A stretch of 64,000 bases of DNA, taken from the sequence record PQ352352.2. One strand, written 5' to 3'. Origin of the DNA: Escherichia phage vB_EcoM_PTE-Eco15. The number at the start of each line of letters is the position of its first letter. The stretch's first letter is position 1. This document shows positions 15,265-19,227 of the stretch, piece after piece. The notes under the pieces were generated by a model. The model saw nothing but the letters and a program-made list of their open reading frames with translations, searched no databases and had not been told where the DNA came from. The position numbers and the translations under genes were made by a program.

Positions 15265-16152
15265 ATGTCAGTAGCAATTAATAATGTCAATGCAGTAATT
15301 AAATCTTTAGTTAATAAAAAATCAAATGAATGGACTGTACTTCAACGCGACGAGTCAGATAAATTTTTTCATAAATTTAACCCAGTACTAAATTTAAATG
15401 TTATTGATAAAGATGTTCACGCCGAAATTTTAGATAAGTTTAAAGTTGATATTGGACTTGGATTAGAAAAACATTTACAACGAACAAACGGATCTGGAAT
15501 GCTTTTATCTAATCGCATCATGAAAGCCCTTAATAAAATTGGAGCGTTGTCTCGCATTAACGCGAGTGAAATTCTTCGCAATTATAATAAAGGATACGAC
15601 CTTTATGGTCGACTAATGCCGAAATTATCATTTGACCAAATGATCGCAGATTTGTGGGAAAATCAACGACGATTATTAGCATTAGGCGCTCGATTAGCTA
15701 AAGGTCTAGATAAACAAATGATTTTTAAAACTAATAATACAGAAGACCTTAAATGCTTTAAATTTAGCACTCGTGGAGATGATTATTACGTCAGAGCTCA
15801 CTCTACAGATTATGCCAATATGGGTCATCATCTCTGTTTAGCTTTTGAAATTTTAAAAGAAGCTGGAACATTAGAATATTCATCTGGTGCAAAATGTCCA
15901 ATTGGTTCAAGTTGTATTTTAATTTATCGCCCGGATGAATCCAGTTCAACTAAATTGCCTACAAAACCTGCACCAGTTCGTAGTAACGAAAAACATTCTG
16001 AACAAATTGATTATTTTAATAAGCAAATTGAAGAGCTGAATATTTCTATTCAACAATATGACGATGAAATTTTCAGACTATCTGGATTGAGTAGTAAAGC
16101 TAAATCTGAGCGTGAAAAATTAATTAAAATTGTTGATTTACTTAAATCTTAA
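15265..16152 (+). CDS. Hypothetical protein with C-terminal coiled coil (tandem family, member 1)
   Basis: 295 aa; C-terminus ...QIEELNISIQQYDDEIFRLSGLSSKAKSEREKLIKIVDLLKS. Confidence 0.6.
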   Translation: MSVAINNVNAVIKSLVNKKSNEWTVLQRDESDKFFHKFNPVLNLNVIDKDVHAEILDKFKVDIGLGLEKHLQRTNGSGMLLSNRIMKALNKIGALSRINASEILRNYNKGYDLYGRLMPKLSFDQMIADLWENQRRLLALGARLAKGLDKQMIFKTNNTEDLKCFKFSTRGDDYYVRAHSTDYANMGHHLCLAFEILKEAGTLEYSSGAKCPIGSSCILIYRPDESSSTKLPTKPAPVRSNEKHSEQIDYFNKQIEELNISIQQYDDEIFRLSGLSSKAKSEREKLIKIVDLLKS

Positions 16153-16160
16153 GGAACACT

Positions 16161-17186
16161 ATGAAAACTCGTTCTCAAATTGAAGATATGGTTCGTAATG
16201 CCAGCTATACCCGTAATGTTATGACATTTTTGTGTGAAAATAATTTAGACCCTGATAGAGTTAATAGTTCCATTCACTTTAAGTATATGAATAGCAGTGA
16301 ATGGTTACGTCATTTTAGTAAAGCGGGATATATTACACAAATGACTGCTCGTGAGCAGCTCACCGATTTCTGTAAAACTATTGATTATAAAAATCCTCTA
16401 TTTGTTCAAGGCGTTGGTCAGAGTAAGGTCGATTTATCAACAGGATTTTTTAATCCAAATCATTATCGTCTTGAATGGAGATTTATTGCTCTATTCCGTA
16501 AACAATTAAAGCAAATTTTGTCTACTGCTAGTCGATTAAAAGGTTCTGATATTAACTTAAAGAATCTGAAATTTGATGGTTATACTCTTCAGATGGAAGT
16601 AAGACCGTTAAAAGAAAATAATAGAACTGCACGAATTAGCTTTAAACCTAATACAAAAAATTCTCTTTCAATTTGTGAATGCCTTAAATCACAGTTGACA
16701 GAAGCATTTAAGTATATGGATGTTGTTGCTGCTGTTCAATCTAAGATTTTACCTCGTTTTGAACGATTTAAGTTAGATACAACATCATATGAACTTGATA
16801 TGATCGTTTCATTTAAATACGATTTTTTGAGAAAGGACGAAGTCCCGCAAGAGAAAAAGCAAGAAGTACAAGATAACTTAAATTTAAATTTATCCAATTA
16901 CTTATCAAACGATCCTAAATTTTGGATGTATAGTTCAGGTAATAAGGATGCATGGAAATTCAATAAAGTGAATTTTCTTCCTATTGAAAATCCGAGTCTT
17001 AAACCTGTTGAAAAATGGCACGCGGATGCGATTGAGAAGTCTCTTAAAGCAGTAGATGATGAACTCGTTAAAGCGACCAATGAAGTGCTAGAAGCTGAAA
17101 AGATGCTAGAAAAAGCTCAAGAAAAAGTCAAAAATCTCACGAAGCAACGTTCTAAACTGAACAATGCACTAAATGCACTGAACTAG
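16161..17186 (+). CDS. Hypothetical protein with C-terminal coiled coil (member 2)
   Basis: 341 aa; C-terminus ...VLEAEKMLEKAQEKVKNLTKQRSKLNNALNALN. Confidence 0.6.
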   Translation: MKTRSQIEDMVRNASYTRNVMTFLCENNLDPDRVNSSIHFKYMNSSEWLRHFSKAGYITQMTAREQLTDFCKTIDYKNPLFVQGVGQSKVDLSTGFFNPNHYRLEWRFIALFRKQLKQILSTASRLKGSDINLKNLKFDGYTLQMEVRPLKENNRTARISFKPNTKNSLSICECLKSQLTEAFKYMDVVAAVQSKILPRFERFKLDTTSYELDMIVSFKYDFLRKDEVPQEKKQEVQDNLNLNLSNYLSNDPKFWMYSSGNKDAWKFNKVNFLPIENPSLKPVEKWHADAIEKSLKAVDDELVKATNEVLEAEKMLEKAQEKVKNLTKQRSKLNNALNALN

Positions 17187-17215
17187 TTTACTTTGCCACA
17201 AGGATGTGGTATAAT
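17186..17215 (+). promoter_or_regulatory. Early promoter
   Basis: gtttactttgccacaaggatgtggtataat; near-identical to the promoter at 62763. Confidence 0.6.
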
Positions 17216-17243
17216 GTTCTTACTTTCTACTGAGGAGATTAAT

Positions 17244-18245
17244 ATGACTCGTAACGAATATATCAAATCATTCAATAGCGTTATTGATGATAAAGCTATA
17301 CCGATGTTTGGCCAAAATAGCGTTCTTTCTATTATCAATCAATGGCTCAATAGTGTTGATGCAGGTATTGTTTCTTCTACTAAATTTATTCATGAAATTC
17401 GTAAAATTTCTAGTCGTGTAGATAAAGATCTTATCAAGAAAACCTTTAAAGAGTCTCGTCTTCTTTCATATTTGGTTAATCGGGATATTCTTGGTAATTT
17501 TGGGAAAGAAATTAAACGAACCAAAGATGTAGTAGGATATAATTGGTTCGGTGATGTTAATTCTTATCATCTTAATAATAAAGAAGACCCTGAGAATATT
17601 TTTACTCGTCGTTGGATTAGTAATTTCAGACTTTTCAAAGGACACATTCTAAAATCAGCTTCTAAATTATGTTATGGCGATTATCGTCAAATTCATCCTT
17701 TGGCTTCTGATATGATTATCATAAAAGAATATGAACTTGATAAAAATAAAGTATCTATTTTTGTGAATTATGGATTTTTTACACCAGAAACTAACCAAAA
17801 GAATATTAATAAATTTTTCTCAATTGCTAGCACTATAACTCGTCAATTAGAGACCGCATTACTTTGTATGGAAACAGTAGAAAATATTCATACTTATCCT
17901 TTTAAGAATATATGCGGTTGGGAAGGATATAAACTCGTAATTAGCCTTCGTGAAGTAAAGTGCGCGTACTCACCGACTGATAAAGAAATTTACCAACAAA
18001 AATGTGATGAAATTGTGAATACTCCTAAAGAAGAAACTACCCTTGAGGAACTAATGGAATGTCTTGATGATTCACCTGAACCGATAGAAATTCGTCCAGA
18101 AGTTATTGCACTAGAAAAAGCTTATAAAGAAGTTCTAGAAATTTCTAATAAAGCGCAGAAAGAATATGAGCAGGCTAAAAGGATTTGGGAAGAATCTGTT
18201 AATCGCTTGGATCGTCTTGAACAAGCTTTACAGTTAATTAAGTAA
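17244..18245 (+). CDS. Hypothetical protein with C-terminal coiled coil (member 3)
   Basis: 333 aa; C-terminus ...KAQKEYEQAKRIWEESVNRLDRLEQALQLIK. Confidence 0.6.
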   Translation: MTRNEYIKSFNSVIDDKAIPMFGQNSVLSIINQWLNSVDAGIVSSTKFIHEIRKISSRVDKDLIKKTFKESRLLSYLVNRDILGNFGKEIKRTKDVVGYNWFGDVNSYHLNNKEDPENIFTRRWISNFRLFKGHILKSASKLCYGDYRQIHPLASDMIIIKEYELDKNKVSIFVNYGFFTPETNQKNINKFFSIASTITRQLETALLCMETVENIHTYPFKNICGWEGYKLVISLREVKCAYSPTDKEIYQQKCDEIVNTPKEETTLEELMECLDDSPEPIEIRPEVIALEKAYKEVLEISNKAQKEYEQAKRIWEESVNRLDRLEQALQLIK

Positions 18246-18297
18246 TTTAAAGCCAAGGATGGCTCGGAGTACAAATCATTAACAAAGTGAGAAGAAC

Positions 18298-19227
18298 ATG
18301 AAAACTCGTAAACATTATATTGATTATTTTGACAGTCTTATTACTAAACATCGTAATTATCAGATAGGACACAGGGCAGTAATCAATAATATTCTTCGTG
18401 ATTTCCTTCAATATGTTGGCCAGGAAAATCATATCTGTAAAGATACTCAAAACGCTTATTCTCATTCGTTAGGCAATTTGCTTCAATGGTTTAAACGTTC
18501 TCGTCTGTTATCTTCTACTGTAGCTAGTGATAACATTAAAAACTTTATGAAGCCGAGCTTCATTAAATCTGAGACATCTATAACCGATTTGGTTGAATTT
18601 ACTATTGTTAACGATGTTAAAAAGACCCATTTGGCTGATTGGTTATCTACCATTCCCGAAACTAAATTTGCTGATAAATTCGCTTGTCAATTCAATGACC
18701 AAGTGAATATGCTTTTTAAGCATGCTCGCAAACTATTTACCGCGGGCGATGACCGTACAAATACAGTTCACGTTAAGGACTGGGTTACTGCTGATGAAGT
18801 AACACACAAGCCAGGTGGTTCATCAGTATTAATTAATATCCAGGTTCCTTATTATTACTCACGTAATCTCGGCACCATGACAGCTAGAGAAATTAATAAG
18901 CACAACAAAACTATTCGTTCGTTGTCTTATAAACTCTGCACGATGGTGGAGATGATGGACGTAGTGGAAATGTATGACGAAACCGAAGATAATGGTTCAA
19001 TGCTGTACAGTTCACGCATTCTAATTAAACTGAAGAACCCTAATACATATAAGCAAGTTGTAAAAGAGCTTAAAGTAGAAAAGGTTGATAATCTGAGTGA
19101 AGAACGCGAATATCTCAATGCTCGTTTGATTGAAGTTGAAGCCCAAATTGCAGAACACACCAAATTGTTAAAAGCTCTTAATGCAAAAGCAAATGGTTTA
19201 CGTAATGCTATTGAGGTATTGAAATGA
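18298..19227 (+). CDS. Hypothetical protein with C-terminal coiled coil (member 4)
   Basis: 309 aa; C-terminus ...[29 protein letters not shown]. Confidence 0.6.
   Translation: MKTRKHYIDYFDSLITKHRNYQIGHRAVINNILRDFLQYVGQENHICKDTQNAYSHSLGNLLQWFKRSRLLSSTVASDNIKNFMKPSFIKSETSITDLVEFTIVNDVKKTHLADWLSTIPETKFADKFACQFNDQVNMLFKHARKLFTAGDDRTNTVHVKDWVTADEVTHKPGGSSVLINIQVPYYYSRNLGTMTAREINKHNKTIRSLSYKLCTMVEMMDVVEMYDETEDNGSMLYSSRILIKLKNPNTYKQVVKELKVEKVDNLSEEREYLNARLIEVEAQIAEHTKLLKALNAKANGLRNAIEVLK

Follow-up and report, generated by a model that had tools for sequence, protein, structure and literature searches.

Four adjacent nrdC-region genes of a T4-like phage as a probable paralogous family and candidate early counter-defence array

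Four neighbouring genes as one family

We analysed a 64,000-nucleotide stretch of the genome of Escherichia phage vB_EcoM_PTE-Eco15 (PQ352352.2; hereafter the window) and found that four consecutive genes at 15265-19227, the orthologues of T4 nrdC.6, nrdC.5, nrdC.4 and nrdC.3 (here genes A, B, C and D), very probably make up one paralogous family with a shared architecture. Our favoured reading of the whole, to which we assign a probability of roughly 60%, is that they are an ancient array of paralogues that serves T4-like phages as a fast-evolving, dispensable, early counter-defence family. One member, nrdC.5, counters the sirtuin defence protein Dsr1 in T4 (PMC9391042). That function was already known; what is new here is the recognition of nrdC.3, nrdC.4, nrdC.5 and nrdC.6 as one superfamily, a statement that our literature search did not find elsewhere.

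Positions 15000-19600 of the window are 96-98% identical to many Tequatrovirus (T4-like) genomes, and a synteny comparison showed that the gene order is collinear with the nrdC-mobD interval of T4 along the direction of the early genes, with the thioredoxin gene nrdC, pin and gene 49 downstream of the array. A first-pass annotation of this DNA had placed four consecutive genes here; we found its coordinates correct, the four being plus-strand open reading frames (ORFs), and the C-terminal sequences that it quoted match the translations exactly. The genes were assigned from their ORFs and from synteny with T4, and the promoter-like site from its consensus match, as follows:

15265-16152, plus strand: gene A, orthologue of T4 nrdC.6, 295 amino acids
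16161-17186, plus strand: gene B, orthologue of T4 nrdC.5, 341 amino acids
17187-17215, plus strand: early-type sigma-70 promoter-like site in the 57-nt gap before gene C
17244-18245, plus strand: gene C, orthologue of T4 nrdC.4, 333 amino acids
18298-19227, plus strand: gene D, orthologue of T4 nrdC.3, 309 amino acids

The proteins are 82.8% (A), 93.6% (B), 98.2% (C) and 60.6% (D) identical to their T4 counterparts. A GAGG ribosome-binding site lies upstream of the gene A ATG at 15265, and at the other end of the array the gene D stop codon overlaps the nrdC.2 start (ATGA). The putative promoter consists of GTTTAC, a 17-nt spacer and TATAAT with an extended TG (TG-n-TATAAT), and is the top plus-strand consensus match in the interval 11.5-20.5 kb (10 of 12 positions in addition to the extended TG). 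Both the GAGGAG ribosome-binding site and the ATG (17244) of gene C are downstream of it. Hence, the early promoter that had been proposed at 17186 corresponds to a strong early-type consensus site, which we keep as putative on the strength of its consensus match.

The N-terminal heads are homologous

The N-terminal 250 residues of the four proteins had been described as essentially unrelated, and this proved wrong. By BLASTP, C and D are 25.7% identical over 226 N-terminal residues (E 2e-6). With family alignments made from the orthologues at 17 related loci and compared by hhalign, we found the C-D pair at 97.8% probability (E 1e-12), B-C at E 2e-4 over 194 collinear columns and B-D at E 1e-3; the A family was not significant against any of the single B, C or D families. 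The merged B/C/D alignment has conserved positions throughout its full length, among them an N-terminal M-x-T-R, a "W..FR....IL..AS+L.GD" helix, an "M..V" motif and the C-terminal end.

When the B/C/D alignment was broadened with distant members from other T4-like genera, taken from a whole-library profile search, the A family matched it with 95% probability (E 3.5e-8, 264 columns), and the heads by themselves matched with 91.6% probability (E 8e-7). Controls with reversed sequence and with unrelated families gave hhalign E-values of 0.05-0.5. The divergence is large, with A, C and D 10-25% identical to gene B. Hence, the heads are related between C and D by BLASTP, and between B and C/D and between A and B/C/D by hhalign.

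Predicted structures share one plan

AlphaFold2 models were made for genes A and B (mean pLDDT 78.8 and 71, respectively), and the architecture of C and D was taken from the alignments. The gene A model has a helical N-terminal part, a β-β-α-β-β unit at 165-221, a disordered linker at 226-241 and a single long C-terminal helix at 245-294 (50 residues). The gene B model has a globular head at 1-222, a disordered, indel-rich linker at 225-283 and, again, one long C-terminal helix (284-340, 57 residues). The two models have the same order of elements, namely two N-terminal helix pairs, a long helix, a β-hairpin, a helix and a second β-hairpin, then a disordered linker of low confidence and the terminal helix, and they are in register by the hhalign alignment. 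In both, the core of the head is an α-β-β-α-β-β two-layer sandwich that follows the helical N-terminal part. We therefore consider it very likely that all members follow one plan: a head of roughly 220-250 residues comes first, a disordered linker follows, and a single amphipathic helix of 48-61 residues, with a conserved L-x-x-A-[LI]-x-x-L-K motif at its end, closes the protein.

Foldseek searches of BFVD agreed, with the two models matching the same uncharacterised Straboviridae proteins of 300-370 amino acids over their full length:

Enterobacter phage IME523: E 2.4e-7 with model B, 2.2e-8 with model A
Acinetobacter phage Acj61: E 3.1e-5 with model B, 8.2e-5 with model A
Erwinia phage Cronus: E 8.4e-7 with model B, 9.8e-5 with model A
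Citrobacter phage Merlin: E 1.2e-4 with model B, 2.8e-4 with model A

A PS2 protein was also matched by both models. In addition, model A matched a 308-amino-acid protein of Tequatrovirus fPS-65 (E 4e-4), whose length is that of the T4-type nrdC.3 allele. Weak matches to tail completion proteins (E about 1e-2) were listed as well, and the sandwich also matched designed proteins and RNA polymerase alpha/Rpb11; the α/β sandwich being generic as a fold, little can be read into the RNA polymerase matches.

The C-terminal tails

After their last proline the four proteins run on for 58 (A), 59 (B), 48 (C) and 61 (D) residues. We scored the last 50 residues of the 68 plus-strand ORFs of at least 100 amino acids with a simple measure of hydrophobicity at heptad positions a and d, and found B first, D second and A fourth (scores 0.74-0.88). 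Gene C scored 0.54; hence, the heptad pattern of its tail is less regular. The heptad-repeat tails that had been reported for all four genes are thus borne out as long, proline-free C-terminal tails of 48-61 residues, with C falling short in regularity.

The third rank in this score (0.76) went to nrdC.8 (14267-14794, 175 amino acids), which lies two genes upstream of the array and has a strong heptad tail. As a candidate fifth member it was rejected, no homology to the family being found by hhalign (E 0.1-0.16).

All four proteins end in L-x-x-[AI]-[LIV]-x-x-[LI]-[KN]-(x)-COOH, as do 0 of the 145 other window ORFs of at least 60 amino acids; since the pattern was written after the four had been seen, this count is descriptive and is not a test. 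Distant members from Klebsiella and Acinetobacter phages share the ending (for example, ...RAIQALK, ...NAIKEFK and ...ETIKILSK). Tail-only hidden Markov models, one per family from the last 50 residues, left the other families undetected (E at least 0.28). Hence, on sequence alone the tails are not a shared conserved domain. By tail-only hhalign, the A family matched the broadened B/C/D alignment at E 1.6e-3. Within orthologues compared across genera, the tails are more conserved than the heads (63 vs 41% for A, 62 vs 44% for C and 33 vs 25% for B); in gene D, both ends are conserved and the middle has diverged between the window and T4 alleles. What remains of the shared C-terminal coiled coil put forward by the first-pass annotation is that all four proteins end in a similar helix and motif, the tails by themselves being only weakly alignable.

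Database families and labels

Current databases divide the four proteins. Gene B matches Pfam DUF7235 (PF23882) with 406 bits (E 1.2e-121, cut-off 30 bits) over positions 1-307 of the 307-position profile. Neither this profile nor any other in the local copy of Pfam had a significant match in A, C or D, and PF26899 and PF26897 were seen as precomputed Pfam labels on homologues of gene A and gene C, respectively. Among the PHROG families, gene B belongs to phrog_2351, gene A matches phrog_2257 (E 4.2e-149) and C and D both match phrog_1435 (E 1.7e-167 and 1.8e-114), these last three over their full length. The NCBIfam profiles returned nothing significant for the four proteins, nor did the PADLOC defence profiles, where BrxC was the sole match, through a coiled-coil overlap of 12 bits. 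When A, B and a C/D profile were compared by sequence with the PDB, no relative came up, the only matches being low-complexity ones to designed helical repeats. None of the Pfam or PHROG structural (virion) families was matched by any of the four.

Many deposited T4-like genomes label nrdC.2-nrdC.11, these four genes included, as "thioredoxin". The label has apparently spread from the gene-name prefix. We found no similarity to thioredoxin in any of the four proteins.

Distribution, loss and divergence

Searching 1.84 billion proteins with the B/C/D profile retrieved 24 cluster representatives at E ≤ 1e-3. By this profile search the superfamily is confined to T4-like phages (Straboviridae), to which all of its named representatives belong. 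Tequatrovirus has all four genes, Mosigvirus AV111 has the A, B and D types and Gaprivervirus DK-13 has the A, B and C types. One member was detected in the fetched stretches of a Klebsiella phage and of an Acinetobacter phage, that of the latter directly upstream of nrdC. In the fetched nrdC surroundings of GEC-3S and EC-F1 (Krischvirus and Pseudotevenvirus loci), no clear family member was found.

On laboratory hosts the genes can be dispensed with, and they are lost readily. A viable, genome-reduced T4 lost nrdC.1-6 as a block (PMC9825161). In the T4 reference, nrdC.6 (10067-10894 of locus L001, the counterpart of window 15265-16152) has a 1-nt deletion, GAGCTGAATATT having become GAGCTG-ATATT; as the reading frame shifts, the final third of the protein is lost together with its entire C-terminal helix (275 residues vs 295). 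Since the nucleotides downstream of the deletion are still conserved, it is a recent lesion of the laboratory strain or a sequencing error. In phage G8, nrdC.4 is split by a frameshift (6971-8003 of locus L009), and of nrdC.6 in phage Pinarejo only the final 47 codons survive (6001-6141 of locus L002). A 167-kb contig carries an in-frame nrdC.5::nrdC.3 fusion (protein P0119) with nrdC.4 deleted, the junction being at a short shared FN..VN motif.

The retained copies diverge quickly. Between Tequatrovirus alleles, the ratio of nonsynonymous to synonymous substitution rates (dN/dS) is 0.1-0.29 for the four genes vs 0-0.02 for nrdC and gene 49. In Tequatrovirus, nrdC.3 has two deep allele classes, both common among sequenced phages: the window type, to which gene D belongs, and the T4 type (6934-7860 of locus L001), with 60.6% protein identity between them. 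The synonymous divergence (dS) of the two classes is about 1.0; conservation extends over the first 60 and the last 50 residues, between which identity is 37-57%.

One further sequence concerns the tails. P0235 is a 173-amino-acid protein in which an unrelated 105-residue N-terminus precedes an exact nrdC.5 tail. Being one sequence on an 803-bp ENA metagenome contig, it may be either a genuine recombinant or a chimera of the assembly, and we set it aside as evidence for head swapping.

The nrdC.5 gene and Dsr1

An evolved T4 clone with compensatory deletions does not grow on ECOR17 (Srikant, Guegler and Laub, eLife 2022; PMC9391042). Deleting dsr1 from ECOR17 restored its growth; conversely, cloned dsr1 shields MG1655 from the clone, and expressing nrdC.5 in trans restores infection (PMC9391042). 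According to a 2026 preprint, the trigger of Dsr1 is the major capsid protein, and the TPR sensor domain of Dsr1 is common to Avs7 (PMC12803255). At 93.6% identity to this NrdC.5, gene B is probably an anti-Dsr1 factor as well, and the remark in the first-pass annotation that no gene here could be tied to a characterised T4 function is outdated. That annotation had also named a contrary outcome, in which the four would be conserved single-copy T4 orthologues of known function: all four are indeed orthologues, and a known function is at hand for one only. For nrdC.3, nrdC.4 and nrdC.6, our literature search found nothing beyond genome announcements.

Since nrdC.5 is known to counter Dsr1, nrdC.3, nrdC.4 and nrdC.6 become candidate immune-evasion genes; we put the case that they too are counter-defence genes at slightly below even odds. 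The idea of an effector-like family with a defence-dependent phenotype is in this sense supported in spirit by the nrdC.5 result, and what does not survive of it is the architecture of one tail on unrelated heads.

A proposed mechanism

The proteins would be synthesised early, their genes being on the early-gene strand and one of them behind a putative early-type promoter. Each of the diversified heads would then bind a separate immune protein of the host and block it before it could be triggered by late proteins of the phage. For NrdC.5, this would mean that the protein occupies Dsr1 ahead of the late major capsid protein, which the TPR domain senses. The tail, as the more conserved part, would make the inhibitor multivalent by forming a coiled coil. 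Direct stoichiometric binding with tail-mediated oligomerisation is a tentative part of our reading, and we hold it to be rather less probable than not.

A bolder version would make the four proteins a diversified battery of early sensor blockers, each head being matched to a different pattern-recognition immune protein of the host, for example TPR sensors of the Dsr1/Avs7 type with varied effectors; the heads would perhaps be decoys derived from a virion domain like that of tail terminators, and the tails would assemble homo- or hetero-oligomers into one multivalent complex. We regard it as speculative and improbable. If it were true, each of nrdC.3, nrdC.4 and nrdC.6 would lead to an immune interaction between phage and host that is new, and in the L-x-x-A-[LI]-x-x-L-K end the proteins would share a signal for assembly or docking.

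Weighing the alternatives

The first-pass annotation had explained the array by domain shuffling, with a constant coiled-coil tail joined to unrelated heads. The long amphipathic helix and similar terminal motif at the end of all four proteins would suit that explanation, as would the little similarity of A or B to the others in pairwise BLASTP and the exact nrdC.5 tail on the foreign head of P0235, if that single contig is not chimeric. It fails on the heads, which share one fold and are homologous with a stronger signal than the tails (head-only E 8e-7 vs tail-only E 1.6e-3); moreover, models A and B agree in element order and in their full-length Foldseek matches, and the tail-only models missed the other families. 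We therefore conclude that the array consists of diverged full-length tandem duplicates, and consider domain shuffling extremely improbable. A second explanation gives the heads a virion origin, as decoys from a protein with a fold like that of tail terminator or tail completion proteins, which would saturate the pattern-recognition sensors of the host early in infection. Hosts are known to have sensors that detect tail terminator, tail tube and capsid proteins (PMC12803255), and tail completion proteins do appear among the Foldseek matches; however, the four proteins have no sequence similarity to any virion protein, and what is reported to trigger Dsr1 is the major capsid protein and no tail terminator (PMC12803255). 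Such decoys are highly improbable in our estimate.

The paralogues may instead serve mainly in host takeover or regulation (transcription, nucleotide or NAD+ metabolism), with the anti-Dsr1 effect being indirect or specific to nrdC.5. The genes do lie in the early nrdC-nrdD region among genes of nucleotide metabolism, they match no defence or anti-defence profile, and no published mechanism for nrdC.5 came up in the literature search. However, unlike core takeover functions, they can be dispensed with and have gone missing time and again, both in natural phages and under laboratory conditions, and a narrow, fast-evolving family with deep head polymorphism is typical of host-specific accessory genes. 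The sole known phenotype is specific to a defence, as growth comes back when dsr1 is deleted or nrdC.5 is supplied, and the fold matches to RNA polymerase count for little. Hence, we consider a main role in takeover unlikely and prefer an early counter-defence family.

Several points weigh against this preferred reading. Its functional evidence is limited to nrdC.5 and to one complementation experiment, we found no follow-up in the literature on how nrdC.5 acts, and nrdC.5 may act against Dsr1 by an indirect route, such as an effect on NAD+ metabolism or on when the capsid is expressed. The dN/dS values, being below 1, reflect relaxed constraint and do not demonstrate positive selection. The link of A to B/C/D rests on profile-profile and fold evidence, and at E ≤ 1e-3 the B/C/D profile retrieved no A-type protein from the whole library. 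The confidence of the models is moderate (pLDDT 71 and 79). As the long helix is free to swing, Foldseek gave low TM-scores (0.2-0.5).

Comparison with known systems

The closest known protein is T4 NrdC.5 (DUF7235) itself, of which gene B is the orthologue, the two genes being flanked alike by nrdC.6 and nrdC.4. The other three, A, C and D, are its distant paralogues and are built to one plan with it (for C and D, judged from the alignments), and differ from it in belonging to separate families (phrog_2257 and phrog_1435; PF26899 and PF26897). A functional analogue of the mechanism proposed for NrdC.5 is DSAD1 of SPbeta-like phages, which binds the sirtuin defence protein DSR2 and blocks its activation by a phage structural protein; for NrdC.5, binding to Dsr1 is only proposed. 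DSAD1 differs in its Bacillus phage origin and its target, DSR2, and is unrelated to NrdC.5 in sequence and fold.

Tail terminator and tail completion proteins (lambda gpU, T5 p142, the P74-26 tail terminator and SPP1 gp17-like proteins) have no sequence similarity to NrdC.3-NrdC.6. In contrast to them, NrdC.3-NrdC.6 are early-region, non-structural and dispensable proteins, and have in addition a helical part at the N-terminus, a disordered linker and a long helix at the C-terminus; the fold that they would have in common is a generic one. The T4 internal proteins IPI, IPII and IPIII are likewise an accessory set with anti-defence members, IPI countering GmrSD and IPIII countering a system of ECOR17 (PMC9391042). 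They are the nearest T4 case of a common module on different bodies, which was the idea of the first-pass annotation. However, what unites the internal proteins is a short N-terminal capsid-targeting sequence and nothing more, and they enter the cell along with the injected DNA, whereas NrdC.3-NrdC.6 are homologous throughout and made after infection, and their shared element is the C-terminal helix.

Other features of the window

Two homing-endonuclease-like ORFs lie at places where T4 has none. That at 13102-13821 (239 amino acids), between nrdC.10 and nrdC.9, has no Pfam match, and its GIY-YIG-like N-terminus was judged by eye. That at 21541-22362 (273 amino acids), between gene 49 and nrdD, has a NUMOD3 motif, and Mosigvirus AV111 has a similar gene, also after gene 49.

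The mechanically called ORF of nrdC.10 (11969-13105), an AAA/STAND-like NTPase by weak Pfam matches, has 378 amino acids vs 325 in T4, and its orthologues start at an internal MKTVTINKGIYFGKE. The extension contains a terminator in the form of a perfect, G+C-rich hairpin (12023-12043), followed by a promoter-like site (12074-12102); hence, the true start is probably the internal ATG.

The ORF at 30057-31076 gave a weak match to the family profile (E 0.011), which we treated as chance and did not accept as a member; from its sequence we take this ORF to be gp47, the Mre11-like nuclease subunit.

Implications

T4 is the best-studied phage, and most of its early accessory genes are without an assigned function. 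NrdC.3-NrdC.6 are at present split three ways, among PF23882, PF26897 and PF26899 and among three PHROGs; merging the three families would improve the annotation of hundreds of genomes of T4-like therapeutic phages. The result is a useful, testable lead and not a surprise. It gives a common architecture to work with, in which the variable head would set the target and the conserved helix would oligomerise, and it makes three uncharacterised genes, as siblings of a gene that defeats Dsr1, specific and testable candidates for counter-defence.

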